This document shows positions 3,163 through 36,616 of a stretch of DNA of 64,000 bases, one piece after another. The translations under genes were made by a program, and so were the position numbers. The stretch covers positions 1 through 64,000 of the forward strand of contig OZ237760.1 in the NCBI GenBank assembly GCA_965178125.1, read 5' to 3'. The stretch's first letter is position 1; the number at the start of each line of letters is the position of its first letter. The stretch is from Bilabrum cf. latius. Lineage: Eukaryota. Under the pieces are notes generated by a model. The model did no database searches and was not told the DNA's origin. It worked only from the letters and a program-made list of their open reading frames with translations.

Positions 3163-3165
3163 AAA

Positions 3166-6400: not shown

Positions 6401-6906
6401 TGGTAGACGCAAAGCTCGGACGGAAACGAAGAAGCGGGCCCCTTTACCGCATCGAATGCTAGGCTTGCGTTGCCGCTTGCTGCAGCATCAACGTAGAATA
6501 GCTCGGCACCCACCAGTTCGTTAGATGCTTGGAAGAATAGAAATCCATTAAACTCAGTAAGATGCCTTGGAAAACTGCTGCTTTGCCCCGGGTTAATGTC
6601 CCCCGCCATGCGCAGCCTGCCAGTGGTTCCATCGTAAGCAAAGAGCTCGGTCCCAAACCGCGGATCTGTCGCAGGTATCCACAATTGTCCTGCTGACACG
6701 AGCATAGAATTCATAGGTTGAATATTCGCCGCAACAAAGGCGCCTCCCGCGCCCACGCCAGTGGCACGCCGTGTGGCTCCAGCCAAGCTTCGAGGATTTT
6801 CGTGCTGCGAGTTACGCACGTCATCGATCGAAATCCACCCTGAATTGCGCGGTTTCCGACTTCCCACGCACCAACCCATCACTAAAAATACTATCCCGCG
6901 TAACAT
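3499..6906 (-). CDS. ELWxxDGT-repeat (beta-propeller-like) protein with Ser/Thr/Pro stalk and multi-pass C-terminal membrane region, about 1135 aa (TAG=Gln)
   Basis: One frame joins ORFs 6247-7116, 5596-6141, 5236-5535, 4987-5193, 4123-4572, 3865-4104 and 3499-3687 through about 15 TAG and no TAA/TGA. Motifs: GTELFAYDGT, DINPGQSSSFP, LTEFNGFLFF, GEELRWFNG, a PSASPT stalk, hydrophobic helices and 'LVIEDIVQLGLQ'. Ends in TGA. The start ATG at 6906 is tentative. Confidence 0.8.
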
Positions 6907-12600: not shown

Positions 12601-15600
12601 AGCTGGAGGCTTACACCTTCTAGCATACGATACTAGTCACAGGGACCCCCATCCAGAACACCCTGAGCGAGCTCTGGTCACTTCTGCACTTCATTGATCC
12701 CGACGGGTTCCCGAGCTCGGAGGACTTCGAGACGGAATTCGGCGACGGCTCTGGATCAGCCAACCCTGCAAAGATAGATGCGTTGCAGAAGATCCTCCGT
12801 AAGTATCTGCTTCGTCGAGAGAAAACAGACGTGGAAACCACCCTCCCTGAGAGGAAGGAGATTATCGTTGAGGTGGCCTTGTCATCCCTGCAGAAGCGGT
12901 GCTACCGCGCTATCTTTGACAAGAATGCGAAATACCTGAACCAGGGGCGAACAGGTAGCGGCGATGTGAAGCTTGGACACATGCACATGCTGCTGAGGCA
13001 CTGCTGCAACCACCCCTTTCTACTCGAGGGCGTGGAGGATGCGGTCCGCACGAGGGACGGTCCCGATGCGGACGTGTACGACATGTACGACAGGCTGGCC
13101 CGGGAGAGCGTAGGGAGTGAGCTTGCTGCGCTTCCCAAAGAAGAGAAAGATGCCGTCCGCGTCGACACCGCGCTGGTGCGTTCATCTGGCAAGCTTATCC
13201 TGCTGGAGAAACTGCTGAAGCACCTGAAATCTCAGGGTCGCAAGTGCCTGGTGTTCAGTCAGTTCGTGATGGTCTTGAACATCTTGGAGGACTTTTTGAA
13301 TCTCAGGGGATTCAAGTACGAGCGGATTGATGGCAATGTCACCGGCTTCGTGCGACAAGCAGCCATTGATCGGTTCTCTCACAAGGAGTCGGAGTCATCT
13401 GTCTTCCTGCTGTGCACGCGGGCGGGCGGAGTCGGCATCAATCTCACCGCCGCAGACACAGTGGTGATTTATGACTCAGACTGGAACCCTCAGAACGACT
13501 TGCAGGCAATGGCTAGGGCGCACCGCATCGGGCAAACGAAGAGCGTGACGGTGTATCGCCTAGTGTCTCGCAATACGTACGAGTCCGAGCTGTTGAACAT
13601 GGCCGCGAAGAAGCTTGGGCTGGATCGTGCCATCCTCGGAAATATGGTTGATTCAGGCGGCAAGAAGGGCAAGAAGGACGCGAAGCTCACCCAAAAGGAT
13701 ATGGAGCTGCTGCTGAAGAAAGGCGCGTACCACCAGCTTGGGCTTGGACAGTCGGACGATGTCAAACCCGACGATTTCAAGGAGGAGCAAGAGTACTTGA
13801 GTCGCAGCATTGAGGATATCCTTGCGAATGCAACCACTCGTAGCGCGGAGCCAAAGCAGGAGGCAGGGGGGGGATCTTCATTCGCCAAGGCCTCTTTCGT
13901 GGCCGAGGAGCAGCGCGGAGCGAAGCAGGTCGACTGGAACGACGACCAGTTCTGGAGCAAACTACTTCCGAAAGGCGCCGGCGCTGCAGGCGAAGACGAA
14001 GCCCTGGCCATGCTCACCGCCGGGGGACGCACGCGAAGAAGAGCCAGGAAGCTGGTCAACTACTGCGAAGAAGAAATCGAGGCGCAAAGAGCTCATTTTA
14101 GGCGGCTTGCTCGTGAACACAAGAGGAGGGGTACCCGCATGCCGGACTACCTTGCAGAAGACTCAGGGGAGGACACATTTGTGCCAGAGGCCCAGAAGTT
14201 GACGGACCGCTCCAGATAGGACGTGTTGCAGTATCTGTAGCGGTAGTCGTTGCCACTCGCTGAGCCGGACCAAGGCGCCCCTGCTGTGGATGACGCCTTG
14301 AACCGCTCATAGGGTGACATCCCGTAGTGTGCGATCACTGCAGACTAGCCTTGGCAAGTGGCAATCGAGAGCTTGCCGCCTGCATTGCGACCGAGCAAAA
14401 AAGCCGTCGGCCATCAAAGCATGGACCCATTCGATGCTGGCGTTGAAAAGATGTCCGATGGCCCAGAACAAGCTACCGTGGGCGACGACGATTCGGAGTC
14501 TGATGCCAGCTCAGTGGAAGTGCTGTCTGAGAGTAACGTTGGAAATGTTTTTGCCGCCCTCATAGCGACCCACGCACTCGCTACACAGGCGTAGACACAG
14601 TGCATTGTGAAGGGGTAGTTTGACTGTGCCTGCTGCACAGTCGCTGCCGCTTACTTGGGCAAGCTCCACGAGCTACGGGGCAAGGTCTGGCTCCAATTGT
14701 TTGCAAGCCTGCGGTTCGGCGAGAGCTTGCGACGCGTCGTCGATCGGGCGTCGGACCATGCGACCAAGGTGTGCGTTGATGCGTTGCGCAATCAACTGGT
14801 TGAATTGCGGAGGTGCTCCACGTAGTTTCCATCACTTGATAGCTCCGGCCATCCAGTGCCAACGGCTGCCAAAGCGAGGGAGGACGCGATCTCAGAATGC
14901 TTGCAGCGGCTGAGTTCTATCTGCACCAGTTTGCGCCAGTCCATGGACGCCAACAAGGAGTCGCTTCCCGAGGCGTGGAGCTACATCTAGCGGTCCACGG
15001 AAGGTGCCGCACTGAGCAGCGCCGACTCGGGTGGTCCAGCAAGTGGAGTGGGGCGGTCGGATAACAGCGGCGCGAGCGAGAGCAACGGCAGCCTGAGCAA
15101 GCAGGCCGAGTCGGACAACGACGAAGATGATGATGACCCGGAGGAAGGTGACTCGGAGAGCGAGTCCGGGGCCGAGGAAGCCCAGGGTATCATCGATATC
15201 CTCATGGAAATCGTCGAGCAGGTCGAAGAGGATGCCGGGCGGGACTTCTGCCCGCCGTACCACCGGTCAGGCCAGCATGTAGCAGAAGAAGCGATGCAGG
15301 CCATTCACGCGATCATTGCTGACCGGGCCGAGTCGATGCCGTCGCCTTGTCCAGCCGCTGTGGCGTGTGCTTGGGTGCTGGGCTGGGTCTACAGGCGCCC
15401 TCTGCACCGCTGCGTGTTTGTCACGAGCCACCCGAGGTACGTCGGGTACGTGCGCGGCCCCGACCCACTGAGGTATGGCTACTTCGATGACGAAGAGAAG
15501 AGTTTGTTGCGGATCGACATGAGCGTGCCCGTGGCAGTGCGAGCCGGGGCGGCATACCCGTATGTCAAGTCGTCCTCTGAAGCGCCTGCGGCAAGCGCAG

Positions 15601-17336: not shown

Positions 17337-20300
17337 ATGCTATCCTATGCAGGCTATTCCCGACCAGCAAGCATAGACATGGCTCCTAGAGATCGCTCTC
17401 ATTGGAGTGGGGGCCTCGGCGGCAGGTCAACAGCAACCATGCCGAATGTCGGTCGGCTGGAGAGCGACATAAGGAGCTTGAGGATGCAGTTGAGTGACAT
17501 CGGCCCAAGGTCTGGGGAGATGCACCGACACATGAGGCGAAATGGAATGCGGGATATGGCTCGAGGGCCGCTCTGGAAGCGTGCTCAGGAAACGCACTAC
17601 TCGCGAGCACAGGGCCGCACCACCTCACAGGCCAGCTCCCGCAAGTGGCGCGGCGGGCGAGAGGGTCCACGGGGCGGCGTGTCCAGGTCCAGGCGACGCC
17701 AGGCTGGAAGTCTTGCGAAGAAATCTCTTGGCAGTGATGCTGATTCCGAGCGGTCCAGCACTAGCGATAGAGGCGGGCAACTGGTGCCGAGCGCTCTGGT
17801 TGTGGGTGGCCGACGGGGCGCCCGGTCGTCCATGATGCAGCTGGAGAGAGAAAATCAATCATTGCGGCGCCAGCTACAGCGCCTACTCGAGGACACGGCC
17901 TCAGTGGCCGGTCAGAGCACTCCGAGCGCAGTGGCGGGTGGGGCGGCCCGACCATCGACAGCAGGTGCCGAGACTGGGGCAGTTGGTGCCTTGGCTGGAG
18001 ACTCGTTCAGCATTGCGAGTGACGCGCAAACCACGACCAACAAGCTCGCTTCTGGGCTCGACAAGATGCAGCGGGATGTGGCGGCCGTTCAGCAGTTGAT
18101 AGACAAGTATACGGCCCGCCTTGACCGTCTGCCATCTAACGAATTCGGGGAGCGGGTTGCCATGCAGGAGCACGTGGCACGACTGGTGGCGCTCAAAGGC
18201 AAGGTACAAGATAAACACCTACAGCAGATGGCGGCAGCCGTGATGAAGCCACAGGAGGCGCCTACATTATGCTCCACGACGGGCGTGGGCCCTGTCGGCA
18301 GCATCCCACGCGGTTTGGGTCCGGGTACGCTGGTGGAGCAGGCAGGATCCGATGCCATCGTCGCAGCGAATGCAAGCGATGCCAAAGCAGTGAGATTACG
18401 AGTACGACTGGATGGCATGCTGTTCGTGGGTGCCCAACGGGACGTGCAGGTGTTCGTGTGCCTCTACCAGAACGGGCGACCTCTGACTCGGGCGGCTGGA
18501 ATGCAATGCAGCGCGCCTGCTGTTCGGTACGGGGACCCCATCCCCCCGCCTGCTGATTGGCGGGCTCGTATGTCTGATACAGTCGCGGAGGAATTGCTAG
18601 CTGCGAGTCTGGAGAAGGGGCCCTCAGCTGCCCTGTAGTGCGTGCAAGAGCTCATGTGGCTCGGCGCGGTGCCTGAGGACGAAGGGCGGGAGCAAGGTGG
18701 AAGACGCCGTCACACTGCCGCGATGGTATTGCCAATCGGAGCATCTGTGCAGCTTCCGCCAATGCAGCCATCCAGCGACAGTTACCTGTTGTTGGAAGTC
18801 AAGTAGGTGCCCCAGGGCGTGGGCTCAATAGCACAGGGCGCACCAATCTCGGTTGGATGGGCGGTGTTACCTCTATTTCGTGGCTCAAAAGGCCATTCAG
18901 GGTCGCGGGGAGCATCTTTGTCTGAAGATGGGGTGCCTCCGTCCTTTGATTAGGGCGACGCAAGTCAAAGCAGCGGTAGCAATGTGCAGCTGGAAGCAGC
19001 CTCCGGTAAGCTGCAGCTCCCGCTGGCCCCACCACCGGTAGGGATCCCCTACGGACTATCAGTGCGGTCAATGCAGGCATCTATTGGAAGGTTGCCAGCA
19101 GGAGCTTCAGAGTTGCCAGTTTTGATGGCCACTGTGTAGGCGCAGCAAGATCCTTCAAACCCCGCAGCAGCAGGAGCAGCTCGATCTCAACGTGCCGTCC
19201 CTCTGCTCCCACTCAGTGCAACGTCAGTTGGCGCCCCGGCTGGGAGTGTATCCCTTCTACTTGCCGCAACTGAGCGAGATGTCCTAGAATCGTCGCTTGC
19301 GATAGGAGCACCTGGCTCTTACCACCCCTTGCTCGGCATGGAAAGGCCTGAGCCACCGCCGGACACGGTGCCTCAAGATGTGGATGTGCGGCGCCCCCCC
19401 CGCAATCCCGAGGAGGCTGCGGGCCGTGGTCGCGGCGGGCAGGCATACTATGCTGCTGCAACGCAGCCCCCAAGAAAAACCCCACTTCCGCCAAACAAGC
19501 CAGTGGCACCGAGCAGATCACGCTCCCCCACCGAAGACTCGGCAGAGGCAGACGCTGGACGCAGCGCGCAAGAGCCTGATGCTGCCGTGAGCTCCTCTGC
19601 CCAGTAGTCTGTGGAAGTCCAGCCAATTGAAGAACAAGCGCAGGGTATTCGAGATCGCTAGCGGACTGCTGCCGCGAGCCAGGAAGCTAGGGACGATGAG
19701 ACAGGACAGGCACCGGCCTCGGAGCCTCGTCAGATGTCTAAGGTTGACTCCATGGTGACCGCCGATCCTGCGTCCAGGAATGAGCCCATACACGGAGCAT
19801 AGCTTAATTCAGATGACGACATCCCAGAGGAGCTGTTGATGTACCCCAAGTACATAGAGGGGCTATCAACGGAGGACGAGAGGGGGGAGCTAGTGTCGCC
19901 TTCTGGTGGCAAGTCCTGGGCGCGCACCGTGCTGCCCAGTCGCTTTCGCCAGATAATGGGCGAAGGAGACGGCTTTGATGTGTACGTAGATGCGGCTCGA
20001 TACCTGCCGGACAATGTGTCGATCAGTCGGGTGGTGTGCAAGGTGATGGACCCGTCCTTCAAGGTGGTGGGGCAGGAGTTCACCAGCGTGGCAGCCATGG
20101 ACTCCGAGAGCCTTTCTCCTGCTTTTGATGCGTATGGCGCCTTTCGATTGCCGGGATCAGCCGATCAAGTAGCTCCGATGCATGGAACAGTGGCTCAGGT
20201 GGGCAACCCATTGCGGTGGCACCCTCATTTGACTCTCGTGGTCCGCGTAGATACTCTCGAGAGCCACACTTAGCAGCCAGCTGGGGTAGGTTACGCTCTC

Positions 20301-21833
20301 CTGAACGTGTTCTGCATGCCGGGCACGGCCGACTCTCCATTCACGCCTTTCAACTTGCTGCTACCAGACCCCAACGCTCCTCAGCGTGGATATGTCTTGA
20401 ATGCCGGGGGCTTCCAGCTCCCGCTGTTTCAAGCCCCTCCCAGCCAGAACGGCACGCCACTGTCCGGAGACTCTCTGGTCGCTGCAGGAGCACCCCGGGT
20501 GCCGTGTGCGTCGGTCCTGGTCAGGATCCGCAAGGCTCCCAGGAGCCCCTCGACCGGCGCAGTGCTGGGTCGCAGCATGGTCCCGTCAGGCAGGTGGTCT
20601 GCGGTTGGGTTGAGGGACCGACCCAAGGCGTACGCAACGCGCCTAGCGTATGACAGCACCCGTTGCTTACCATTTGGAGCGGAGGTGAAGCTGTACCCGA
20701 AGCGAGCCGACCTGACCTCTCCCACAGTCCGGGAGACCCTCGAGCACCTCAGGGACAAGATGCTCTCGAGGGAGCCAGAGACCAGCCACTTGCCAGCGCT
20801 ATCTGGGTCGGGCACTGATGCTGACATGGCGCAATGGGTGGACCGTGCGATTGGCGAGCGCCCGCGGGCCATGCTGGACTACGGCTACCTGGCCCCCTTT
20901 GACCCTGAGGCAGGGCTCATGCTCAGCGTGGATGCCATCGTGGGGGCGCACATGAGGCCAGCAGGGGCTGCCGGCCCAGCCAACAGCACGGCCTATGCCG
21001 TGTTGCACTCACTAGCAGGACCGCAGGGACCCATCCTCGCTCGCGAGCCGCTTCCACCGAGCGGGTGGCACGCAGCCAGGCACCCCAACTGGAACAGCAT
21101 GCCGGGGGTACAGGGCATGCAGGATGGGTTCAGCTCGTACTACAGCGTCAGGTTCGACCCCAAGATGTGCATCTTTCTGCAGGTCAGAGCCGTGCGGATG
21201 CCGGCCTCGAAGGAAGAGCAGGCAGCGGCAGCAGAGAACCCCCCCGCACCAGTCAAGGTGGGCTGGACAATCCTGCCGGTGTTCGACCGCCGGTGCGAGG
21301 GGTACGTGCGCCGTGGGTGCTTTAGCTTGCCTCTTTTTGTGGGAGACCCGCCCGCATCCCTTTGGACCGCAATCCAAGATGTAACAGAGGTAGACAGCTT
21401 AATCCATCGCATGACTAACGTGGGTAGGGCGGCCACACGGGACCGGCCGTTGCTCGTGCATCCCGAGCGATTGTCTCTAACGGTCCGGCTGCAAGACCCG
21501 CAGTTCCAAGAGATGCTGGAGGTGCCCCTCGGTGGCAGGATGGGCCCATCCGTAGAGCTCGCGTGCGAGCCCTTGCGGCGAGATCTCCGCACCGAGACCA
21601 TCGCAGCGCTGCAGAAGCTCCAGGCTGCGCAGTAGTCGCGTGACGGGTCTGCCTCCAGCGACGGGGGTGCGCTCCGAGGCATGCTTCCTGACGGCGTGAC
21701 GGACTCGCAAGCAAACAAAATGCTGTTGAAATCATTGCGCACGATTGTGTCGAGGCGCCTCAAAGTTGCGGCGAGGGCAGTACAGGCTGCAGTTCGCGAG
21801 CGGCTGCGTGTTGCAGACGACAGCGGCAGATAA
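17337..21833 (+). CDS. Large coiled-coil protein with repeated C2-like beta domains (possibly CCDC17-related), about 1498 aa
   Basis: Single frame with about 9 TAG, ending in TAA. N-terminal coiled coil, repeated 'VGWAVLPLF' / 'VGYALLNVF' / 'VGWTILPVF...G.F.LPLF' motifs and GFDVYVDAARYLPDN. The family assignment is from memory and weak. Confidence 0.7.
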
Positions 21834-22028
21834 GAGTTGGAATGAGGCATATGAATCGTAATCTAAATCGCATTGCGGGACAGGTGTGAGATTCAAATAA
21901 ATGCAACGAAACAACGATGGCACAAGAAATCGCCCGCTGAATTGTCAACACACAGGCTGCAAAAGGATCACAGCCCAAATTAGCAAGGCTGGAAATAAAG
22001 TAGGAAGGCCTGATGAAGCAATTAAGCT

Positions 22029-23418
22029 TCAGTCTTCCTTCTTGTCCTCGGCGGCGGCCTCGCCGTCCTCCTTCTTGTCCTCGGCAGCGGCCTCGCCGTC
22101 CTCCTTCTTGTCCTCGGCGGCGGCCTCGCCGTCCTCCTTCTTGTCCTCGGCGGCGGCCTCGCCGTCCTCCTTCTTGTCCTCGGCGGCGGCCTCGCCGTCG
22201 TCCTTCTTGTCCTCGGCGGCGGCCTCGCCGTCCTCCTTCTTGTCCTCGGCAGCGGCCTCGCCGTCCTCCTTCTTGTCCTCGGCAGCGGCCTCGCCGTCCT
22301 CCTTCTTGTCCTCGGCAGCGGCCTCGCCGTCCTCCTTCTTGTCCTCGGCGGCGGCCTCGCCGTCCTCCTTCTTGTCCTCGGCAGCGGCCTCGCCGTCCTC
22401 CTTCTTGTCCTCGGCAGCGGCCTCGCCGTCCTCCTTCTTGTCCTCGGCAGCGGCCTCGCCGTCCTCCTTCTTGTCCTCGGCAGCGGCCTCGCCGTCCTCC
22501 TTCTTGTCCTCGGCAGCGGCCTCGCCGTCCTCCTTCTTGTCCTCGGCAGCGGCCTCGCCGTCCTCCTTCTTGTCCTCGGCAGCGGCCTCGCCGTCCTCCT
22601 TCTTGTCCTCGGCGGCGGCCTCGCCGTCCTCCTTCTTGTCCTCGGCGGCGGCCTCGCCGTCCTCCTTCTTGTCCTCGGCAGCGGCCTCGCCGTCCTCCTT
22701 CTTGTCCTCAGATGGATCCGCTGCGGACGCATCCGCCTTATCATCTTCTCCTTCCCCAGCTCCTCCCGCCGCGGCACCATCCTCCTCCTCCTCGTCAGCC
22801 TCACCGTCCTCTTCCTCGTCACCCTCTGCTCCTCCCTCCGCTGCTTTCTTCTTGGCCTCCTGCTCTGCCTTCTTCGCAGCAAGCTTGGCCTCTTTCTCCC
22901 GATAGGCCCTCTTTATCGGGTCTTCATCCTCATTCTGCTCCTTCGCGGTCTGCATCACCTCGCGGATCGCCTCCAGCCACTCGTACTTTTCCGAATCATC
23001 AAGCTCAGTCGGCAGGCGCATCTCCAGGATGACTCGAGAATCAGCAGCTTTACCGCGCAATGAGATGAAGAACTCGCGTCCAGAACCATTTTCCACGCTG
23101 ATTGCGTTCCTCATGTCGTAGAGCTTTGGCGCCTTCTCCCCAATGTCTTCATGGGATTGGTATCGTCTAAGCTTCAGATCGGTGGAGCACAGCGTGAAAT
23201 ACCGAAAATTCCAAGTTCCAAACATTCTGCGATCATGAGCATGACGTGAAGCGGCAAAGTGTTTGTGGATCAGTCGAACAATCACACTCTCGAGTCAGCG
23301 CTACCGCAGCTCACCTAGACAGACCCTGGGACGGGCGAACTTCAAGGTATCCTTCTAGCAAAATCTTTCCCTTAGGGGGCTTGACATCACCATGATCAGC
23401 GCTCTCAGTAGCTGCCAT
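22029..23418 (-). CDS. PH-domain protein with acidic 11-aa tandem-repeat tail, about 433 aa; intron 23227-23314
   Basis: After GT-AG splicing it reads ILLEGYLEVR...GTWNFRYFTL...EWLEAIREV, a PH signature. The tail is (EDKKEDGEAAA)n. TGA stop. Confidence 0.85.
22032..22709. repeat. Coding minisatellite, 33 bp x about 20
   Basis: The unit tcctccttcttgtcctcggc[a/g]gcggcctcgccg is repeated. Variation is almost entirely at one synonymous site. Confidence 0.97.
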
Positions 23419-23704
23419 TCTGGTCCTGCGATCCGGGCAAGTGATTCAGTGGAAGACGACGTAGACGCCACAAAAGGATCGGGGGAAGGCGTCGGTGCGA
23501 AGAAAGTATATGTATGATATTTAGAATCCGATTGTGATGCTCACAATACTTATTCAAAGTGCAGAAGAGAAGGGTTACGGTGTTTCCTTGGCGTGGTTGT
23601 CGGTTCGGCATGAAATCGGATTTCTCGACAGCAAAACCACGCGCTACAGGCTACATAGCCGTGTTTGCTCGTTCGATGCTATTTGTTGAGACTTAAGCTC
23701 CAGC

Positions 23705-24577
23705 ATGGTATCTGATGGAAGCGAAGCCTTGATGTATGGCGTTATAAGCCCGACGTGCTTCGGATCACTGGTTGAGTAGCGGAATTTTGGCGACATTGAA
23801 TGTGCCAAAGCAGTTCTGTCGAAACTTGCCGGTTACGCAATCGTTTTCGGATCATGCGTGCTAGTCCTACCCACCATATTTAATGTTCTTTCAAGCAAGG
23901 GGACTGCTGGCTTGAAGGGCATGAGCGAGTCCGGGAAGTTGCTTCAGACGATCGGGTACTCTTGGGCCTTCGCCTACAACATGATCCAGGGGCATAGCTT
24001 GTCCACGTATGGGGAATCGATAATTCTGTACGCCCAGCACATATTGCTGCTAGCAGCCCTTCTCTACGTGGATCGCAAGAATCGCGCCGCACGAGCGGTC
24101 ACAGCGATCCTCGGTGTAGGCATCGGGTTGGCGTTGCCGTGGGTGGCACTCGAAGTCATGGGGGGTTCATCGGCTGCCGTTCTCCAAAGCGTGGTTGATC
24201 AGTCAGGGTCGGGGTCAGTTGAGGTGTCCGCGACCGTGCAGAGCCTCCTGATAGTGCTGTTCTGGTCCCAGTTTGCGCTTTTCTTGTCTAGCAAGCTTGC
24301 CCAGGCATACGCTGCCCTGGCTGCGCTCTCAACGGGCGCAGAGAGCGGATTTGGGCTGCTCCTACAGGCGGGCGGGTCTTCTGTACGGCTTCTGACGACT
24401 TTGCAGGAGGTGAAGGACGTGTCGGTGCTGATCAACAACGGGCTCATGGGAGGCATCAACGTGTTCCTCTTCGGCTTGTACGTCCTATTCGAGATCCTGG
24501 GATTTGGCAAGAGCAGTGGCAAGTAGTCAACCGGCGCATAGGTGGAACAGGGCAAGGGGTCTTTAAAGGCTGAATGA
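23705..24577 (+). CDS. MPDU1: Mannose-P-dolichol utilization defect 1 (MPDU1/Lec35)-like PQ-loop membrane protein, about 290 aa
   Basis: CFGSLVE*RNFGDIECAKAVLSKLAGYAIVFGSCVLVLPTI, STYGE, STGAES and VRLLTTLQEVKD match the MPDU1 pattern. TAG at 23777, 24524 and 24539; TGA at 24575. Confidence 0.82.
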
Positions 24578-25071
24578 GGGCGATTCGCCGGCACTGGCAG
24601 AACAGCCTTTATCGGGAGTAGGCGACATCATGATGTGTGGCAATGTTGCACGTTTCGTCAGCTTGTTTGGATGGTCTCCCTGCTTGTTTGCTCAACAAGC
24701 TACTACTCGCTACGTTGTCATCGGCGATCTTGCATCTATCGACTTCCGCCGCCACTTCGGAAGTTCCGGAAGCTCACCGAGGCTGCCAGTGACTGCGACG
24801 GTGTGACGATGCCAGCCGCTCCAGAACCACCACCATTTAAATGCCAGTCTGCAAGCAGTTACACGCACCGACACGCCTTGTAATGAACTATCGCGCCTCT
24901 AGCCGGGTTCAAGGCATGATTCGCGCTGGAAAATCAAGGCTTTAGGCTAGGTCTCGCCTGGCCTGGAGCATGGGGCAACCGAGATTCCGGGCAAGACATG
25001 TCGTCTCGTCTGCATCTTGGAGCCCGTCCCACACCGGCGGCACCAGCGACAAGGCTGCTGTAGGGATTCAA

Positions 25072-28000
25072 ATGAACCGCTTTGTTTTAAATACATTTGG
25101 ACCACGCGCTGCATCACGCTTATTCCACGCAACGAGTGTCCCGTAGGAACAGTCAGCTGGATCTGGTGACGGCCCCTCTGCGCAAGTGCAGCCAACTGGA
25201 GTACCGCTTGCCGATCTTACTGTTGGCATCCCTAAGGAAAGCTTCCACGGGGAGCGCAGGGTGGCAGCCACTCCGGACACGATTAAGGCGCTGCGCAAGG
25301 CAGGCTACGGTAGAGTTGTAGTTGAAAAAGGGGCTGGAGTGCAGGCTTCCTTCCCTGATGAGCTCTACGAGGCAGCCGGTGCCATCATTGGAGATACCAA
25401 GACCGTGCTAAGTAGTGACGTGGTGCTCAAAATCAGGCCGCCTAGCATTCAGAAGGAGGTACCGATGCTTAAACCTGGCGGGACTCTCATTTCTTTCGTC
25501 TACCCTGCCCAGTCCTCCGAGCTCCTTGAGGCTCTCAAGGCACAGAAAATGACCGTGTTGGGTATGGTGAGTTACTGCGGTCGAGTGGCCCCGGTTGTGT
25601 TCGCCTGCAAGGGAACAAGTGTAGCATCTCGGAAGTGAAAGATACGTCCCATCTCCGCGTTCGTTCCCGCCCACCCATCGCAGGACTGCATCCCGAGGAC
25701 TAGTCGCGCTTAGACTTTCGATGCTCTGTCGTCAACTGCAAATATTGCGGGGTATCGGGCGGTGCTGGAGGCAGCTCACCACTTTGGCCGATTCCTCGGC
25801 GGGCAGATCACCGCAGCTGGAAGAGTGCCTCCCGCCAAAGTGATGGTGATCGGGGGAGGTGTGGCCGGTCTGGCCGCCATCCAGACGGCAAAGAACATGG
25901 GTGCGATCGTGAGGTGTTTCGACACGAGGCCCGAGGTGAGGGAGCAGGTGGAGAGCCTCGGCGGGCAGTTCCTGATGGTGGAGGGCGAGGCGGCGGACGA
26001 GTTCTACTCGGGGGCGGGGCAAGGGGGGTACGCCAAGCAGATGAGCCAGGCGTTCATTGACGCCGAGATGGAGCTGTTCCGGCAGCAGTGCAAGGACGTG
26101 GACATGGTGATCACCACGGCGCTGATCCCCGGCAAGAAGGCCCCCGTGCTCATCACCAAGGACATGGTCGAGAGCATGCGGCCGGGGAGCGTGGTCGTGG
26201 ACCTCGCCGCGGAGGCGGGGGGGAACGTGGAAACCACGCGCCCCGGGGAGGTGGCAGACCACAATGGCGTGACGTGCATCGGGTACACGGACCTGCCCTC
26301 GAGGCTGCCAGGACAGTCCTCTCGGCTGTACTCGAACAACATCACCAAGTTCCTGCTCTCGCTGCAGGGGGCCGACGACCAGGGCAAGAAGGCCAAGGAC
26401 AGGCTGCACTTTGACGAGGAGGACGAAGTCACGCGCGGGGCGCTGGTGCTGAGGGAGGGGCAGCTCAAGTGGCCCGCACCCCCGCCGCCCTCCATGGACA
26501 AAGTGGGCGCGCAGGCAGCCGCACCCGCCGCTGCGTCCTCCCCGGAGGAGGTGGTGCTGGACCCCGAGGCAGAGCTTAGGAAGGAGACCATCCGGTATGC
26601 CACGGCCGCAGCTGCTGGAACGGGCCTGCTCTACATGGCAGGGGCTGGTGCAACTGACCCTCAGACTCTGGCTCTGCTAGCCAGCTTCTCTCTCGCGGGT
26701 GTAGCGGGCTACCAGGCTGTGCGCGGCGTGACGCACTCGCTGCACTCCCCGCTGCTGTCCGTGACAAATGCCATCAGCGGCCTGTCCGCTGTGGGCGGCC
26801 TCTGCCTGCTGGGCGGCGGGGTGCTCCCGCACACGCCTGGGCAAGCCCTCGCGGCGCTGGCCGTGGCGGTGAGCGCGGTGAACATCACCGGCGGATTCGT
26901 CAGCACGCAGCGCATGCTGGACATGTTCCAGCGGAAGGGGGACCCCCAGTCTCCCGATCACCTGTACGCCATTCCTGCCGCTGCTCTCGTGGGCCTGTAC
27001 GGCGCATCGCTGCTGGCGGGGATGCCGCTGGCTTCCCAGCACATGCTGCTGGTGGCCGGCCTGCTGTGCATCGGGGCCATTCGGAGCCTGGCCAGCCAGG
27101 AGACGGCCCGCCTCGGCAACGCCCTCGGCATGATTGGTGTGGGCACCGGAGTGCTGGCCACCGTGGGCGGGCTCCCGCTCGCCGCCAACCCCGGCTTGCT
27201 GCTGCAGGCGACTGCGCTGCTTGGTGCCGGCGGGGCCGCGGGCTACGGGATTGCCCGCCGCATGGACGTGATGGAGCTGCCCCAGCTAGTGGCGGGGTTC
27301 CACTCGCTCGTGGGCATGGCTGCTGCCGCCACCTCCATTGCGGCCTACATGGAGCACGGCGCGGGCGCGCATGCGGTGGCGGACGCGGCGGCAGCGGCGG
27401 CGGATGCAGCCACGCAAGCCGCAGATGCAGCAGAGGCGGTGATTGCTTCGACGAGCGCCTCCGAGCCGATGGATCTGGGCCACCGCATCATGAGCTACGC
27501 AGGCCTGGCCACCGGGGCGGCCACTGCCACGGGGTCCGTGGTGGCCTTCGGCAAGCTCCGCGGCAACATCAGCGGGGCGCGCTGGGCTCCGTCGTACGCG
27601 CGCACGCTGAATGCAGCCGCCCTCGGTGTCACGGGGCTGGCGGGGATCGCGTTCATGGCTGGTGCCGCTGGCCCTGCGGCGGGCCTGGGTCTGCTCGGCG
27701 TGGGGCTGCTGGGCAGCAGCTACCTGGGCGCGTCCATCACCATGGGGGTGGGCGGCGCTGATGCACCGGTGGCACTCACTGTGTTGAACAGCGCGTCTGG
27801 GTGGGCGCTCGCAGCCGAGGGCTTCTTGCTGGACAACACGCTGCTGACCGTGTCCGGCTCGCTCATTGGCTTCTCCGGTGCGATCCTGACCCAGATCATG
27901 TGCGAGGCAATGAATAAGAGCGTGGGCGAGGTGATCCTGCCCCCGCCTCCCAAGCAGGGCAGCGGGGGAGCGACTGCAGGGGCCCCTGCAGAGCAGAGGG

Positions 28001-28536
28001 AGGCCATCTAGGTGGACGCGGCGGCGGTGGCAGACATCCTCATGCAGGCAGAGAAGGTGCTGGTCGTGCCAGGGTACGGGCTGGCAGTCGCGAGGGCGCA
28101 GTACGCGATGGCTGACCTGCAGGCGATGCTGGCCAAGGCGGGCAAGGAGGTCATCTTTGGGGTGCACCCGGTGGCAGGTCGCATGCCGGGGCAGCTGAAC
28201 GTGCTGCTGGCCGAGGCCGGTGTGCCGTACGATGTGGTGCAGGAGATGGACGAAGTCAACGAGGAGATGGACGAGTACGACGTGGCCATCGTGGTAGGCG
28301 CCAATGACACGGTCAACAGCGCCGCGGAGGAGGACCCGAACTCTGGGCTGGCAGGCATGCCCGTGATCCGCGTGTGGCAGGCCAAGCAGAGCATCGTCAT
28401 GAAGCGGTCGCTGGGGACCGGGTACGCTGCCGTGGACAACCCCGTGTTCTTCAAGGAGAACAACGCCATGTTCTTGGGAGACGCCAAGCAGTCCCTCGAG
28501 CAGCTGAGAGATCTCGTCAAGGAGAAGCTGGGCTAA
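25072..28536 (+). CDS. NNT: Mitochondrial NAD(P) transhydrogenase (dI-dII-dIII order), about 1115 aa; intron 25567-25683
   Basis: Presequence-like [126 protein letters not shown] at 25144, 25711 and 28009; TAA stop. Confidence 0.97.
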
Positions 28537-28782
28537 GCAAGCCTCGGGCTGGCGAGCGAGGGCAGGGTGCCGTGCTTGGCGAGACAAAATGGAGACTAGG
28601 GCCGTGGCACAGCACCTTTGGATGCAGGAGAAGGAAATGTGAGCGAAGTAGACCATAATAATATCAAATTTTGAACTTAATTTTCGCGCCCAACTCAATA
28701 TATGCAAACTCACCGGTGTTTTGCCTAAGTCATCCATTGATCGATCCACGCCTCGTCCTGTCCCCTTGCAACTTCCTTCCGT

Positions 28783-29859
28783 TCACTTCTCGTAAGGAGT
28801 CTTGTCCAGGTCGTCAAAGTAAGGGTGCGCCATGGCGTCCTTGCAGGAGATGCGCTTGGCGGGGTCGTAGGTGAGCATCTTGCCGAGCAGGTCGTATCCC
28901 TGCTTGCACAGGCCGGGCACTGCCTTCTCGAGCGACTTGGCGGGCCACTTGGGGAAGCCCTCGGAGAAGTCCCTCAGGGAGGTCACGCCAGGCCATGTCT
29001 TCTCCGTAGGCGTGCCCAGGGTCCTGAAAATCTGGTACAGCTCGTCGATCTCGCTGTCCCCCGGCCAGAGCGGTCGCTTGGTGACCATCTCGGCGAAGAT
29101 CGTTCCTACGCTCCACATGTCCACGCCAGGCGCATACGCCTTCTGGCCGAGGAGAATCTCAGGTGCACGGTACCACAGAGTAACAACCTCGTGCGTGTAC
29201 TGCCTGATGGGAACCATGAATGCCCTAGCAAGCCCGAAATCTGCAATCTTGAGCGAGCCGTACCTGTCCACTAGAAGGTTTTGCGGCTTGAGATCGCGAT
29301 GCATGATCCCTCTCCTGTGGCAATAGTCCATGCCTCGGAGTAGCTGATACAAGTAACTCTTGACGAGCTTCGTTGGCATCGGGCCAGACACAGTGTCGGT
29401 GTACTTCTTGAGGTCCTTGTCCATCCACTCGAACACCAAGTACAGCCTGCCCTTCGAATACTCGACGTCCTTTAGCCTGCGTCCACAGAAGCTTAAATAG
29501 GATACGCAAAAAGTGCAGTAAATCAAGCACCCAATTATCACGCGAGAGAAGGTAGCCGCCCCACTGGCGCGAGCAAGCTCAAACGTCCCAACGGTAGCGA
29601 AACCAGGTTGACCGATGAGACCCAATCAGCCCTTTCTTGATTCTCACTTCACAATGTTAGGATCATCAAGTTCCCGCAACAAAGAAATCTCGCGCAGGGC
29701 GGTCGAAGGAATGCCTTCATCCCCCTCGACTTCCAACTTGATTTTCTTCATTGCGACATAGTCTCCAGTCGCCTTCTCCTTCGCCTTGTAGACGACGCCA
29801 TAGGTACCCTCGCCAACCACAGGCTTCTCTACCTTTTGGTACTTAGTTGCGATGCTCAT
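28783..29859 (-). CDS. Cyclin-dependent kinase, CDK1/CDKA type with PSTALRE helix, about 301 aa; intron 29477-29647
   Basis: [53 protein letters not shown] and GDSEID. A GT-AG intron restores the frame. TGA stop; no TAG codons. Confidence 0.97.
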
Positions 29860-29914
29860 GGTTGCTAGAGTCGCGTCTGCGGTCTGATACTTGAATGCAA
29901 ACGGGCGGTGCTCA

Positions 29915-29926
29915 TTCGCGCGCCAA
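29915..29926. promoter_or_regulatory. Candidate E2F-like element (TTCGCGCGCCAA) upstream of the CDK start
   Basis: Near-palindromic TTCGCGC/GCGCCAA about 56 bp upstream of the CDK ATG, with a second CGCGCGCAAT near 29950. Motif resemblance only. Confidence 0.3.
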
Positions 29927-30179
29927 TCCTTTGCGGAACCGCCCGGGCCGCGCGCGCAATTCGAAGGTTCACGAAGCAAAGCACCACTGACTCACCAGTT
30001 TCAGCAACTCACTGTGCTTTCACTGTTGTATTTGTATCTGAAGTGCAGCCATACACTATTATATAGGTTGTAGTCCCAACGCTAGCTGTGATTGCGGCTA
30101 GACTGTCTCTCGATTGTGATCTAGTGCCCTGCCAGCAGTTCCAAAGCTGGCCAAAACATCTGCTTGAGGCCAGCTGCGT

Positions 30180-33100
30180 ATGGCGTTGGCTTCGCCAAAG
30201 GATGAAGAACCAGCAGGTTTTAGTGTAAGCTAGCGTCCGGTTGACCAAGACATGGTGGGGTCTGGGAGGGCTGCCCATGGAAGTGCAGCGTCCAGCGAAG
30301 GCTCTGCATTGCAGCAGTCGTCTCTATCCCTGATGGACCTAGCTGGGTTCTCAAACGAAGCCCACAGCTCCACCTTAGTTGATGTTCATCATAAGTTCGG
30401 GCCGTAGGGGGCGCGAGATGGCCCCAGCAACCAGCATGGTCGTGAATCCACCGACCAGGCAGGGCCGGTCGTGCGGCACTCCCGGGGTGCATAGACAGCA
30501 AGCCATGTCTAGCTGGACACGCAGCTGAGGTTGAAGCGAGCTGCATCCATACGGTGCGCCTCTCTTGGCCAAATGGACTCCCTTCGGATCGCGCAATCCG
30601 CATCAGGCGCCGATACTCCCGGACCGCCGCCCCACGAGTCTGAAGTGCCGCTGCCTGCAGGCGCCATGGACCTGGTGGCTGCTGGCACGCTGGCGGGGGC
30701 GGGCCGACCGGGGTATAGGGACGGGGAGCTGATGCATGCCCTATTTGATGAACCCGGGGATGCCTGTCTGCTGCCCGGAGGGGCCGTGCTGGTGGCGGAC
30801 ATGCGGAACAGCTGCCTGAGGGTGGTGCGCGTGGATCGCAGGGGAGCCGGGAACAGGAGTGCAAGGCCTAGATCGGGTCGGGGGGCCACTGCATTTCCCA
30901 GCAAACCAGGCCCCAACAGTGACAAGGACGGTAGCGGTGAAGGCACGGGCAACGTGTTCCCCGGGGAGGTGCTCACGCTGGACTCGTGCTCGCTACTGCG
31001 GCCGAGGGCACCCCTGATGATGGGCCCGAGCCGCATCGTGCTGGTGTGCGACAGCGGCCACCACAAGATTCGCATGCTGCAGCTGCAGGAGGATATCAGC
31101 TGGACGGACGGGGCTTCCCTTGCAGTACATGACTCGGTGCTGGCGGGGAGCGGTCGCAGGGGCCTCAGGGACGGGCCAGCCGACAGGGCAGAGTTTGACG
31201 CGCCCAGCGGGTTGTGTCTGCTTCCCGATGGCTCGATCCTCGTGTCTGACACTGGAAATCACTGCATCCGGAGAATTGCAGGGCGTGCAGGGCGCGGGGG
31301 GCTTTTTGTCAGCACGGTGGCGGGTGCTGCCCGGGGCGAAGAGAGCACCGAGCAAGAGAGCGTGGCTTCCGTGCAGCAACCAGCAGCTGCTGGAGAGCGG
31401 TAGCTGCCTTTGACGGACAGGTCGCAGCTGTTCCAGACGGCGGCAGAGCACTAGCACGAGAGCAAACCCACCGACGGCGGCCGCAGGAATCAGCGGTGGC
31501 GCGATGGCAACGGTTCGACTGCGCTGTTCCACCGCCCCGAGAGCATGGTCTATGACGCGGTGAGCGGCCTCGTGCTGGTCGCTGACGTGGGAAACAGCTG
31601 CGTGAGAGCAGTGCTGCCGCCCTCCACCAGCCAGCGGGGCACAACGATGGATTGTGTCGACCCAGCCGAATACGAGGTCACTACGGTGGCTGGCTGCCCT
31701 GGTCAGCCGGGGCACAGAGACGGACCGGGTCCTGCCGCCAGATTCGGCCGGCTGGGACAGCTGGCTTTGGCTGAGGATGGGTCCATCCTTGTGGCTGACA
31801 GCGGGGCAAGGTGCGTCCGAGGAATCGTTCAGTCGAGCCACAACGCATTCGGTGAGGTCAAGACCGTTGCTGGGGTCCCACACACCGGCCAAGACTCGAG
31901 GAAGGCAAGTATCAGGTACAAGGACGGAGCGGCGAGGCGAGCCAAGTTCGGCAAGCCGGCAGGACTGTGCGTGGTGCCTGCTTCGAACGGGTGCCTACTA
32001 GTGTCTGACGCCACGAACAACCACCTGCGCGTCCTCATCTCGAGGCAAGCGTCTCGGCGCCCACCGAGGGCAGTGGCGAGGAGCCTGCCCCCGACAGCAG
32101 ATCGCACCGAAGGCACTCAGATGCCCGCTCGGCAGAGTTCGGCCTCAGTTGTGGACTCGCTGCAGGCCATGGGAAGGGGAGCCGCGACGGGCAGTCACGC
32201 GGAGGGAAGCGCCATCCGTGCCTTGCTGGCAGGCCCGGGCTCGCCCGGGGGATTCGCTCTAGGTACGCTGTCCTTTCGTCGCGGTGGGGGATCTGGAGGC
32301 ACGGTTGGGCTGGGGTCGGGCTTTGCTGGCAGCATGAGGTAGATTGCGTTCGGTCTCCACGAAGACGAAGCTGGAATCGACCTTGTGAGTCGACTGCAGG
32401 CTTCCGTGCGAGCCCTAGGCACAAGTGCGGTTAGGACTACCAGCGGAGATGGAGTCCCCGGGGCTCAATAGAGGGCTCTTTCAGTCGCAGTGGACAAGGG
32501 GGAGCATGTGGCGCTTGTTAAGCACATCACAGACAAGCTCTGGTCCACATCAGCCCACGACTAGCATAGGCACCGGCCCGCCGAAGGCCCGCACCGAGGT
32601 GCACCCGCAGCAATGCAGAGTGCCCCAGTGCTGGATCATCTGGGTATCGCTGTGAGGGGCTCGCTGGGGCTACCGGGCCAACCTCGCGTTCTTATGTCGA
32701 GCCACGTGCGGCGAACTGCGGTGCGAAAGTCGGCAGCATAGCCAGGCACGCATAGCACGGGCAGCCAGGCCAACTCGCGGCCGAGAGGTAGCGCCACGAA
32801 AGCAAAGAATTCATCGGCAGCAACAGGTGGATCTCCTTTCAGGGAGCGGCCAGCAAAGCCACTTGCATCCGCACTGCTCGCACACCAAGTAGCTGCCGCC
32901 CATGCATCGCGGGAAAGCCCAGCCATAGCTTTTGGCAAGACCCTACCAGCGGGCTCGCAGCTCACTTCGCCACGCACCGGGCACGAGGCAGGCGGAACTC
33001 CTGACAAAACCAAGGCGCTTGCCATGAACCGTGCTCGAGACTCGCGAGCCTCACATTCACGAGCGGGGGAGCGTGGCTCCAGGGCACTTGCTCGCGAGTT

Positions 33101-35027
33101 TGTACGAGCAAACTCGCCCGAGTCACGCGCCATCCGCTAGGCCCAGCAGCACGCCGCCACGGTCGACGACTCAGAGAAGCAGAGACCAGTCTCGCAGAGC
33201 TCAGAGCATGCGCTCGCCCAGGATGCCCCGGCAGGCAGTGAAGAAGCTGGGAAAGGCTCGCCAAAGCCGGCCTCAAGTCCTAAAGTAGCTTTCGTTCACC
33301 CCAGCGTTCGTGGCATGCCGGGTGATGATGCGGTGTAGCGGACGAGAACTGCCATGCGCGCGCTAGCAACAAGTAGCCTCGGTCACGAGGACAGTGGACC
33401 AGGGCGGGAGAAGCTGCGTGATTCCTCTCTCGACGAGTAGGACGAGGAGCAGGCTGAAGCCCCGTTCCATGCTCCCAAGGAGTCGCTGCCTGGCAATGAT
33501 TGCGTGTCGAAAGTAATCGAGGACGCCATCACATTCGTGTTGGAGCAGGCCGGGGACGAGCCGTCCCAATCCGACCGCGACCGGGCCGAAGGGCTGCACC
33601 AGCGCCTGCACTAGCGCCTCCTCGCCCTCAACCTTGACGTTGGTATCGGGTCAGAGGCGGCAGTATTATTGAGCAGCTGCTCGTTGCTGGACATGGTCGA
33701 ACGTGCAGACGGAAGATAGCTCGAGTCAGGGAAGCGCAAGGTGCCCAGCATCAGCGACGTCACCCGCATCTTGAGGAGGGCCGCTCAGCTGGACGAGCAG
33801 GCTAGGCTCGGCAAGGACTCCCGCGCGGCCTCTACGGCACAGCCAACCGACGCTAAGCCGCCTGTTGGACCTCGCCTTGCCGGTAATGGTCCACGTGCCG
33901 CGACGCGGCACTCGCATGCCAAGGCCCCCCAGTCGGCGCGGGGTTCGGCTTCGGCGGAGTCCTCCGAGCTATCGTGGTCGCTGGCCTCGGATGCGGCCGA
34001 CGTTGCAGCGCAGGACACGACAAAGCCTGCGTCTGGACTCCCGCGATACCAGCAGCCCACGGTGGCAGCCGTGCAGAGGGCCCGCAGCTCGGGGATCCGG
34101 TTGCGGCCGGACAGCCTGAGCTACGGTTGGAGGGCGCGGCACCGGGGCACGGCCTCGTGGGTAGAGGCATCGGAGAAGGAGGCGCGAAAGACGGGCAATC
34201 CTGTGGGGAAGCAGTATTCAAATGGAGTCTCTGGCATGACGCCTGAGGCGGTGCACAGGTTGGCGGTGCAGCGTCTTGAGGGCACGCGAGGCCCGGGCGG
34301 TCGGACGCTGCCAGACACCAAGTCTGCGTATGCGCAGCTTGGTGCATCGGGACATTTGATGACGCGGCGAAGCGTAGAGGTGCAGTAGGGCACTCTCCGA
34401 GGGAGCAGTTCAGCCCTGGTGCAGCTACCCAGCCGTCATGATCATAGCAGCGGGACTGGAGGCATGCGTGCATCGGCTCGTGCAAGCCATGGTGGCCCGT
34501 AGCTGCTGAGCCCTTCAAATCGTGTGGGTCTAGATAGTGTGACCGTCCGCGCGGGCGGCATATCGCCTACGCATGTGCCTATCGACCACCCGCGTGACGC
34601 ATGGATCAAGCAAGCCCCCCTGGACCTCGAGGTGGCCACGACACCAGCTTTTGCCACACAGCGGGGTGGAGGGCACGTGGGCATCGAGACTTTCGTGGAG
34701 CACGCTGCACGCTAGCCGGCCTACGCCAGCGGGAGAGGCGAGATTCGATCGGCACCTCCTGCTGTAGACGAGATCCATACGCGGCGGCATTTCGTGCAGA
34801 GCCACGCAGCGGTGCAGGCCTACCACCCGGCGATGCAGCTGAGGCCGCACGAGGCCGACATGAGGCGGGCTGTAGCGGGGGCCGCATCCAGCGCAGTGCT
34901 GGGTCGGTCAGGACGCGCTTCGCCCCTGCGGCAGGTGCAGAGCCTGCCCGCCTACTCTGTGCCCTCGCCGACCAAGGCGGTCGGTGAAACGGCACAGGGT
35001 GGAAGGAGGGTGCGGTTCGCGCCGTGA
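30180..35027 (+). CDS. NHL-repeat (beta-propeller) protein with long disordered C-terminus, about 1615 aa
   Basis: Repeats such as GYRDG..HALFDEP, VLVADMRNSCLR, GLRDGPADRAEFDAPSGL..DGSILVSDTGNHCIRRI and GHRDGPGPAARF. One frame with about 18 TAG; TGA stop. Confidence 0.82.
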
Positions 35028-35105
35028 GGCAATAGCAGGGGAGACTGGGCGTACAGAGCTTATTGTTGAAAATCAAAATTGTTGTTGCACTGTTGTGTAC
35101 ATAAA

Positions 35106-36616
35106 TTAGCTATTTTGTTGCTGTGCACTGTCAATCTCTGCACCTCCGGATGTCGCCTCAGCCAGCAGCTGCCCGCCGACGAGACCAGCGAGCACGAAGA
35201 GCCCCAGCCACTGATTGCTCACGAACCGGCTCGTGAGGTTCATCCGATCGCCCAGATCGGCCGAGTGCACCTGCCACAGTGCGTGTGTCGTGGCCCCGGC
35301 CGCAGCGAGGTAGGCCGGCCATGCTGCTCCCGTGAGAGTTGCTGTCCCTGCCAGTCCGGCGCCGAAGGCAAGGCTGAAGCCTGTCAGCACCGGCTTGGTG
35401 CGATCAGGACCAAGCAGCAGCGCAGTGGACTTGAGGCCCAGCTTGGAGTCGTCCTCCGTGTCCTGATGCGCGTAGATGGTGTCGTATACCACGGTCCAGG
35501 CAGCCGCGCCGAGGTATGCGGGCACGCAGTGCACCAGCACGCTCGTGTCCACGGCTGCAGCTGCCTCCATGAACGGGTGCAAGCCCTCTTCCAGCAGCCT
35601 ACCGAGCGCCTCCAAGACCGTGAGCGGCTCCTGTCCGGTCGTGCCCCTCGCCCCCATGGCCACTGCGCCCATCATGAGGCCCCAATTCATTGCCAGACCC
35701 AACACGGCTTGCGGCCAGTGCGTGAATCGCTTGCACAGAGGATACACGACCACGAGAGGCACAGCACCGATTGCCCATGGCACCAGAGCAGCAGGCAAGG
35801 GGAGGAGAACGCTTGCCGCTGCGGCGAGCTGTGCGCCCAGGAAGGCGACGCCGGCGGGCACCGAGATCACGCCGGACGCGATGGGCCGCTGACTTGTGCG
35901 ACGGACTGCGCGATCGATGGAAGGTATAGGCGAGTCAACGGTGCGAGACGCCCATGAGGATACGCTCGGGGGGATGGATGGTGGCAAGGAGCGCCGCGAT
36001 CGTGGCTTACCCTTGCCGTCGATGTCCCTGTCCCATATGTCGTTGATCGTGCAGCCAGCACTTCTCATGAGGAACGCACCAGTGCCTGCAATACCAGCAT
36101 ATCGCTAACATACATGGCGGAAAATGGACTCCATTTTGGGAAAGAGAGGCTTCGGATAGAGGCAGGCTATTGCCGCGTGGCTCGCTGCTCACCAAACGCT
36201 GCCACGGGCAGCAGGCTGGGTAGGCTGCCAACCGGAGCAGCAAGTGTTAAGCCCCACAGTGCTGGGGCTAGGACGAGCCAAGTTCCAATAGGCCTGCATA
36301 GTCAGAAATGTGTGCCTGAAGCCTCTGGTGCTTGTGTGAAACTGCGACTCTGGCTGAGGCAAGTACGTCTTCTACCTTACCTATCAATGCGAATCAGTTT
36401 CAAGTATGGTTTTAGTGCTATTGGGGCGTTCCTATCAACCCAAGTGTCATTCTAGTCAGCATACAGAGCCTTGGCCGGCTGTGTGGCAAGTACTCTGCGC
36501 AACCGCAACTATCTGTGAATGTAGCCACCACCACACGGCAGGCGAACTGGGCAACGCAATAATATCCTACTCCTGCAGAGTACTGGCCGGCATCCCCGAG
36601 AGCCTATCATCCTCAT
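35106..36616 (-). CDS. COQ2: 4-hydroxybenzoate polyprenyltransferase (mitochondrial), about 403 aa; introns 35906-36010, 36086-36192, 36294-36380
   Basis: The spliced product reads PYLKLIRIDRPIGTWL...[38 protein letters not shown]...YPLCKRFTHWPQ...YDTIYAHQD..DD.K.GLKSTA. The Arg-rich N-terminal region contains 2 TAG. TAA stop. Confidence 0.93.

Follow-up and report, generated by a model that had tools for sequence, protein, structure and literature searches.

Does UAG still end translation in the organism from which this DNA comes and, if it has become a sense codon, has UAA changed its meaning along with it? The question is raised by a stretch of 64,000 nucleotides from Bilabrum cf. latius (contig OZ237760.1, positions 1 to 64,000; this whole stretch is referred to below as the window), in which the standard code breaks the long reading frames, whereas reading TAG as sense gives fused frames of up to 2670 codons. 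Within the window, UAG lies inside conserved coding sequence and is evenly spread there, and UAA and UGA never lie inside genes and mark their ends. The explanation that we consider probable is that UAG is a sense codon, most likely for glutamine (Gln), and that UAA and UGA have been kept as terminators, which is the pattern of NCBI translation table 15. By the published logic for such codes, UAG would be decoded by a tRNA with anticodon CUA, which cannot pair with UAA, and the release factor eRF1 would have lost its recognition of UAG or have it weakened; reasoning of this kind, on the tRNA and on eRF1, is given in PMC5304391. An initial annotation, made from the letters of the sequence, had proposed that the meanings of UAA and UAG are uncoupled here, and this is supported by the codon counts, by a stop-agnostic coding test, by the number of TAA codons to be expected and by the end of the NAD(P) transhydrogenase gene (NNT).

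Across 17 gene pieces with 16,847 codons we counted 107 TAG in frame, and neither TAA nor TGA occurred in frame even once, in agreement with the initial annotation, which had found no in-frame TAA; the two off-frames of the same pieces contain 43 and 56 TAA and 281 and 277 TGA. The zero for TAA arises partly by construction, the open reading frames (ORFs) having been delimited by TAA and TGA, and because of this partial circularity three further checks were made that are independent of ORF delimitation. The stop-agnostic test scores 60 codons on each flank of a triplet, in the triplet's own frame and on both strands, with a codon-usage log-ratio that skips stops, and its threshold of 0.03 lets through 84% of 270 windows in the true frame and 5.8% of 1350 in other frames. 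Both flanks were coding at 120 of 1015 TAG triplets, at 7 of 1478 TGA triplets and at a single one of 487 TAA triplets, about 1.6 chance matches being expected for TAA (487 x 0.058 squared). This single TAA, at 13471 on the minus strand, is antisense to the gene of a CHD-type SNF2 remodeller and its flanks score weakly (0.04 and 0.07). For none of the TAA-terminated ORFs did composition, the next stop or the coding score point to coding sequence continuing past the TAA. Homology, on the other hand, runs across TAG codons in NNT, in a GH5 endoglycoceramidase-like gene, in a flavin adenine dinucleotide (FAD) oxidoreductase gene, in the CHD gene and in a gene of the SulP/SLC26 transporter family.

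These counts bear directly on the possibility that UAA and UAG were reassigned jointly, as in table 6, with TAA being too rare in a genome rich in guanine and cytosine (GC) to be seen in frame and the three genes that end in TAA doing so by coincidence. TAA is indeed the rarest of the three triplets when the totals over both strands, given above, are compared, and two of the three TAA ends have a TGA within 3 and 10 codons. If, however, TAA stood to TAG as CAA stands to CAG, 24.1 in-frame TAA would be expected from the pooled genes and 36.0 from a gene-by-gene calculation, and the Poisson probability of observing zero against these expectations is 3e-11 to 2e-16. Genes with a low GC content at third codon positions (GC3), in which CAA makes up 30-40% of CAA+CAG, carry 13-15 TAG and 0 TAA. 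Moreover, reading through the TAA of NNT would lengthen the frame by 45 codons that are non-coding in composition and lie past the ends of all 119 homologues that we compared, and altogether we regard a joint reassignment as very improbable.

The second line of evidence for retained UAA and UGA terminators comes from the gene ends. We count 16 supported genes; TGA is the terminator of 13 and TAA that of 3, with TAG terminating none. The initial annotation had listed 18 genes with 15 TGA ends; its three TAA ends and the lack of any TAG end hold, but its totals for genes and for TGA ends exceed those that we could support, and the gap is probably accounted for by some questionable ORFs, either within repeats or antisense to genuine genes. 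The three TAA terminators were confirmed where they had been placed:

21831-21833, plus strand: TAA terminator of a 1498-codon gene (17337-21833; nephrocystin-4-like lead), reading GGC AGA TAA
28534-28536, plus strand: TAA terminator of NNT (exons 24841-25638 and 25843-28536), reading CTG GGC TAA
35106-35108, minus strand: TAA terminator of a UbiA/COQ2-type prenyltransferase gene (35106-36134), reading AGC TAA at 35108-35106

The TAA of NNT, which follows the residues ...[19 protein letters not shown], is anchored by homology, since 119 of 119 homologues (P0002-P0120, with the window's own P0001 excluded from the comparison) end -1 to +5 residues from it, so that the earlier statement that this TAA stands where NNT orthologues end is borne out. 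Past it, the next 45 codons have a GC3 of 0.51, as compared with 0.86 within the gene, and the coding score is 0.34 on the upstream flank and 0.0 on the downstream flank. In the 1498-codon gene, whose end has no homology anchor, a TGA lies three codons past the TAA and the coding score is 0.11 upstream and -0.03 downstream. The protein of this gene gave no Pfam match; language-model features (0.93-0.95, with a plain table-11 ORF) liken its C-terminal part to nephrocystin-4, which belongs to the ciliary transition zone, and if this lead is true the organism has flagella. In the COQ2 gene, which is matched by Pfam UbiA at E=4e-40, a TGA lies ten codons past the TAA in AT-rich sequence, and the C-terminus is not anchored, a search of solved structures (PDB) having returned no match at E<=1e-5. 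The COQ2 frame (35800-36134, minus strand) apparently crosses an in-frame intron that splits the conserved Asp-rich motif of the UbiA family. The N-terminal part of the family is missing from it as well, and its sole TAG, at codon 10, may therefore be non-coding.

Five gene ends are anchored by homology, and they comprise one TAA (that of NNT), four TGA and no TAG; the remaining 11 of the 16 have no such anchor. The four anchored TGA ends are as follows:

28783-28785, minus strand: TGA terminator of a cyclin-dependent kinase (CDK) gene, last exon 28783-29424
53584-53586, minus strand: TGA terminator of a serine carboxypeptidase gene, last exon 53587-54297
43048-43050, minus strand: TGA terminator of the GH5 endoglycoceramidase-like gene, 43048-45093
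9153-9155, plus strand: TGA terminator of the FAD oxidoreductase gene, second exon ~8469-9155

In the kinase, Pfam Pkinase is matched to its last position (263/263) ten residues before the TGA, and in the carboxypeptidase, Pfam Peptidase_S10 is matched over positions 240-420 of 420, to three residues before the TGA. An N-terminal CDK exon was also found, with the motifs GEGTYG and PSTALRE; this first exon (29700-29990, minus strand) thus has the cyclin-binding motif PSTALRE instead of PSTAIRE. For the FAD oxidoreductase, homologues aligned by tblastn reach residue 641 of 645 (P0206) and residue 682 of 684 (P0208) at 9131-9134. The C-terminus of the GH5 protein aligns with the ends of its homologues, and its TAG codon 598 lies upstream of this aligned end. 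The same gene has a stretch of ~190 codons rich in Arg and Ala (codons ~345-530, at ~43500-44060 on the minus strand) that is absent from all homologues, and at TAG codon 479 all 79 aligned homologues are gapped. The stretch could be an insertion that keeps the frame or an intron left unspliced, and if it is an intron, TAG codon 479 would not be coding.

Could UAG nevertheless also end some genes, or UAA occasionally be read as sense, in a context-dependent or incomplete code whose exceptions are beyond the reach of 64 kb? With 11 of the 16 ends unanchored, a TAG that ended a gene and had a short open tail behind it would escape notice, and the coding score after the last TAG is indeed weak in some tails (0.01 in g1_3499, 0.02 in SulP, 0.03 in CHD and -0.02 in Rhod); stop codons with a dual meaning are, moreover, reported in accounts of other protists. 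The positions of TAG along genes are nonetheless uniform (Kolmogorov-Smirnov p=0.34), with counts of 16, 20, 22, 26 and 23 in successive quintiles, and TAG is not thinned out towards the 3' ends. There is therefore no sign of a second, terminating meaning, a statement to be read with the 11 unanchored ends in mind. None of the five anchored ends is a TAG, and GH5 codon 598 precedes an end that is itself aligned with the homologue ends. As to UAA as a rare sense codon, no TAA lies between two coding flanks, except for the one weak antisense match described above. A code of this mixed kind seems to us quite unlikely, and we keep to UAG as sense with UAA and UGA as the terminators.

TAG is used in the manner of a non-preferred codon. 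Genes with a GC3 of 0.56-0.57 contain 13.2 TAG per 1000 codons, and the density falls to 0-3 per 1000 in gene pieces with a GC3 >= 0.79; at a GC3 of 0.80-0.86, NNT exon 2 has 1.1 per 1000, and the CDK and carboxypeptidase exons have 0. This fall with rising GC3 parallels that of the CAA and GAA share, with exceptions such as the GH5 gene, which has 10.3 TAG per 1000 at a GC3 of 0.76. If TAG is read as Gln, it makes up ~14% of the Gln codons.

The identity of the amino acid, which the initial annotation had taken for granted as Gln, was assessed at TAG codons that fall within alignable sequence and at a tandem TAG by its context:

28009-28011, plus strand: in-frame TAG, NNT codon 723, with NNT homology on both sides (Pfam PNTB 400-888)
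56777-56779, plus strand: in-frame TAG, sulfate permease (SulP) codon 341, inside the motif LDSN-x-ELVGLG
7493-7495, 7562-7564 and 7637-7639, plus strand: in-frame TAGs, FAD oxidoreductase codons 152, 175 and 200
11877-11879, plus strand: in-frame TAG, CHD-type remodeller codon 728, aligned with Q in human CHD4
12621-12623, plus strand: in-frame TAG, CHD-type remodeller codon 976, two residues upstream of LVTGTP, a conserved helicase motif
3862-3867, minus strand: tandem TAG TAG in gene 3499-6906 (codons 1014-1015), immediately upstream of three Gln codons (GS-x-x-QQQ-AN)

The most direct comparison is with a close relative, P0205, which is 95% identical to the window over 362 residues (window 7040-8341) and has Q, E and Q at the three TAG sites of the FAD oxidoreductase. 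At the other 359 sites the two differ 15 times; Q is kept at 13 of 13 sites and E at 16 of 18, with 0 exchanges between Q and E. Gln accounts for these three sites with two matches and one change, a far better fit than the one match and two changes that glutamate (Glu) would need. The most conserved TAG column is that of SulP, where three of the five solved structures (prestin, SLC26A11 and pendrin) have Q at the position in N-x-E, Arabidopsis SULTR4;1 has S and rice SPDT has K. In the CHD protein, codon 728 is aligned in just 39 of 149 representatives, and codon 976 corresponds to Q in CHD4 and to N in CHD1; at codons 320, 371 and 858 too few homologues were aligned for a reading (1, 2 and 10 of 149, with 858 mostly gaps). 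A fragment from a relative, P0325 (87% identity, window 11000-11879), stops right before codon 728, ending in ...PTPSFIR at the window's TAG, and the relative therefore carries at this site a stop of the standard code; the organism of P0325 presumably shares the code. The context of TAG pairs is ambiguous, the pair in gene 3499-6906 standing before QQQ and another, in gene 45261-53273, before EE (AL-x-x-EELG); GS-x-x-QQQ fits Gln without proving it.

Distant homologues give a less clear picture, and it is here that an uncoupled code with UAG read as Glu has to be considered. The TAG columns hold Q/N, H, N/S, D/E and D/P at five sites of GH5, E/T, T/S and E/Q at the three sites of the FAD oxidoreductase, and mainly E (59) and V (55) at NNT codon 723, a variable column. 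A distant-homologue profile over 9 TAG columns ranks Glu first (E 1.01, Q 0.65, D -1.14, S -1.64, with L outside the best eight), and its control recovered the right residue for ordinary codons in 294-300 of 300 draws. Glu would also agree with E being the commonest residue at CHD codon 976, with the E found in P0205 at one of its three sites, and with TAGs that adjoin runs of Glu, as in the pair before EE. The profile is nevertheless unable to separate Glu from Gln because TAG sits at variable columns, and for the same reason distant homologues carry little weight in favour of Glu. At the close range of P0205, Glu would need two Q/E exchanges in three sites when none is seen at 31 ordinary Q or E sites, and the SulP column contains Q 3, S 1, K 1 and E 0. 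We consider Glu unlikely. Gln, by comparison of these sequences, is favoured and in our judgement quite likely, although not proven; what does not stand of the earlier assumption is its certainty, given that Glu does at least as well among distant homologues.

Serine and leucine were weighed in the same way. A code with UAA as stop and UAG read as Ser, as in Scotinosphaera, or as Leu, as in the rhizarian exLh, gains some plausibility from green algae being the best named matches of NNT (53-54%), from the S of Arabidopsis SULTR4;1 at the SulP site, and from the run GS-x-x-QQQ, which is also readable as a run of Ser. But the columns taken together fit polar residues and suggest that Ser and Leu are unlikely: P0205, with its Q, E and Q, has neither S nor L at a TAG site, and the profile supports neither. 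The apparent affinity to algae also weakens, since both GH5 (48%) and the FAD oxidoreductase (51-52%) have Cafeteria as their best named match, and since a FastTree phylogeny of GH5 with 84 homologues puts the window as sister to Cafeteria plus one further sequence (local support 93), beside Cafeteria and not algae, and apart from a chytrid clade. We therefore hold Ser or Leu to be hardly probable, and return to Gln as the favoured reading.

Two gene families, GH5 and the FAD oxidoreductase, thus suggest a placement towards Cafeteria. The NNT tree gave no placement, the window joining long branches in a join that was flagged as unreliable. A full-text literature search, which left most subscription journals outside, returned no such code for a GC-rich protist of this kind and no nuclear code change for stramenopiles. 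It is conceivable, and we put it forward as a tentative suggestion that we would sooner doubt than affirm, that the window represents an independent and unreported origin of a UAG-only (Gln) code in a GC-rich, aerobic and probably flagellated protist whose nearest named relative in two gene families is the bicosoecid stramenopile Cafeteria, with at least one relative in public read data sharing the code. The code has practical consequences for databases. Translation with the standard table cuts genes at every TAG, and public sets consequently hold truncated pieces such as P0325 and P0001; the latter, a protein of 749 aa, covers 80% of the NNT exon-2 reading at 100% identity. Translating this organism with table 6, on the other hand, would overrun real TAA stops.

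Apart from the partial circularity of the in-frame count, several points weigh against UAG as Gln with UAA and UGA as terminators. The codon-usage model of the stop-agnostic test was trained on the same ORFs that it tests, and the sample comprises 16 genes from a single 64-kb window. Among the three TAA ends, homology anchors that of NNT only, and the other two say little alone. With respect to the amino acid, the distant homologues do not favour Gln, as Glu scores as high or higher there, and the best-populated column of all, CHD codon 976, holds E 64, D 31, Q 10, A 9 and R 7 among 149 representatives; the call of Gln rests mainly on three sites in one relative.

The first 499 bases of the window are a telomere of ~82 copies of (ACCCTA)n, equivalent to TTAGGG on the opposite strand, followed by further repeats:

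498-2568: 155-base subtelomeric repeat, 13.5 copies
1717-1910 and 2628-3162: interstitial ACCCTA arrays
3165-3390: 53-base repeat

The telomeric ACCCTA and the 155-base subtelomeric repeats identify the window as the end of a eukaryotic chromosome, and it is nuclear DNA of a GC-rich eukaryote with few introns. The GC content is 52-72% per 2 kb, and the few introns are short. ORFs with an 'RVRVRV' translation within 1-3390 are repeat artefacts. A 33-base minisatellite (22032-22709; 20.5 copies, 98% identity) between the nephrocystin-4-like gene and the next gene likewise yields long ORFs on both strands, which are probably not genes. Pfam recognised families in the FAD oxidoreductase, the CHD-type SNF2 remodeller, the two-exon NNT, the CDK, an NHL-repeat protein, the UbiA/COQ2 prenyltransferase, a rhodanese-domain protein, the GH5 endoglycoceramidase-like enzyme, the serine carboxypeptidase, the SulP/SLC26 transporter and an enoyl-CoA hydratase-like protein. 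As for the decoding machinery, for which the initial annotation had predicted an eRF1 blind to UAG and a tRNA-Gln(CUA) lacking a UUA counterpart, ARAGORN found 0 tRNA genes in the 64-kb window, Rfam at gathering scores gave 0 matches to RNA genes in the window, and no eRF1 domain was detected among the window proteins scanned with Pfam. A self-BLAST of the window returned 0 matches outside the repeat zones, and with them no paralogous coding repeats in which a TAG would be paired with a sense codon.

How does this code compare with those already described? The coupled reassignment of UAA and UAG to Gln (table 6) occurs in many ciliates, in hexamitid diplomonads and in some ulvophytes. The window resembles these codes in that a stop codon is, probably, read as Gln, and differs from them in that TAA is never in frame and terminates NNT. 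The initial annotation had presented joint reassignment of UAA and UAG as the usual case for variant nuclear codes, and in doing so left out the published uncoupled codes of exLh, Iotanema, Scotinosphaera, Protocruzia and phyllopharyngean ciliates. Codes in which all three stops are also sense, of the Condylostoma, Blastocrithidia and Amoebophrya types, were considered and set aside, with TGA and TAA both at 0 in frame in the window. In Amoeboaphelidium protococcarum, TAG and TAA are both reported as Gln (PMC6299283), and Table 1 of PMC10608142 lists Amoeboaphelidium genomes at ~40% GC, as against ~52-72% in the window, which makes this genus an improbable source of the DNA.

Nuclear codes in which UAG and UAA are uncoupled have been in print since 2017 for several lineages. 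The rhizarian exLh reads UAG as Leu and keeps UAA as a stop, with a CUA-anticodon tRNA predicted, and Iotanema spirale reads UAG as Gln (both in PMC5304391). The green alga Scotinosphaera uses TAG for Ser, with TAA and TGA as stops (PMC8271138). PMC11687900 describes UAG as Gln in Protocruzia tuzeti and in two phyllopharyngean ciliate lineages (Hartmannula sinica, Trochilia petrani) and UAG as Leu in metagenome-assembled ciliate genomes, and treats the combination of UAA and UGA stops with UAG glutamine as translation table 15. The window shares with exLh the uncoupling itself, but not Leu, which has no support here; it shares with Scotinosphaera, as described, the reassignment of TAG alone with TAA and TGA ending genes, but not Ser, which P0205 and the profile leave without support. 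It is most like Iotanema, Protocruzia, Hartmannula and Trochilia, in that UAG has become sense, probably for Gln, UAA remains a stop, and UAG, in the published descriptions as in the window, is neither depleted near gene ends nor seen terminating. The types of evidence are also the same as those presented in PMC5304391 and PMC11687900, namely alignments of C-termini and the way in which UAG is distributed along genes.

The window is therefore most likely a further case of a kind of code that is already known, and not a new kind of code. Each lineage in which UAG alone has changed is a data point for testing whether a tRNA with a CUA anticodon frees UAG to evolve separately from UAA. Unlike the ciliate cases, this window is GC-rich, NNT and COQ2 are among its genes, and the named organisms closest to it lie outside the ciliates. 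It also differs in its preferred terminator, which is TGA in 13 of 16 genes, whereas the ciliates have UAA at 92.6-100% of aligned ends in the figures of PMC11687900, so that a GC-rich genome with TGA as its main terminator provides a different setting for the same change from that of the ciliate examples.

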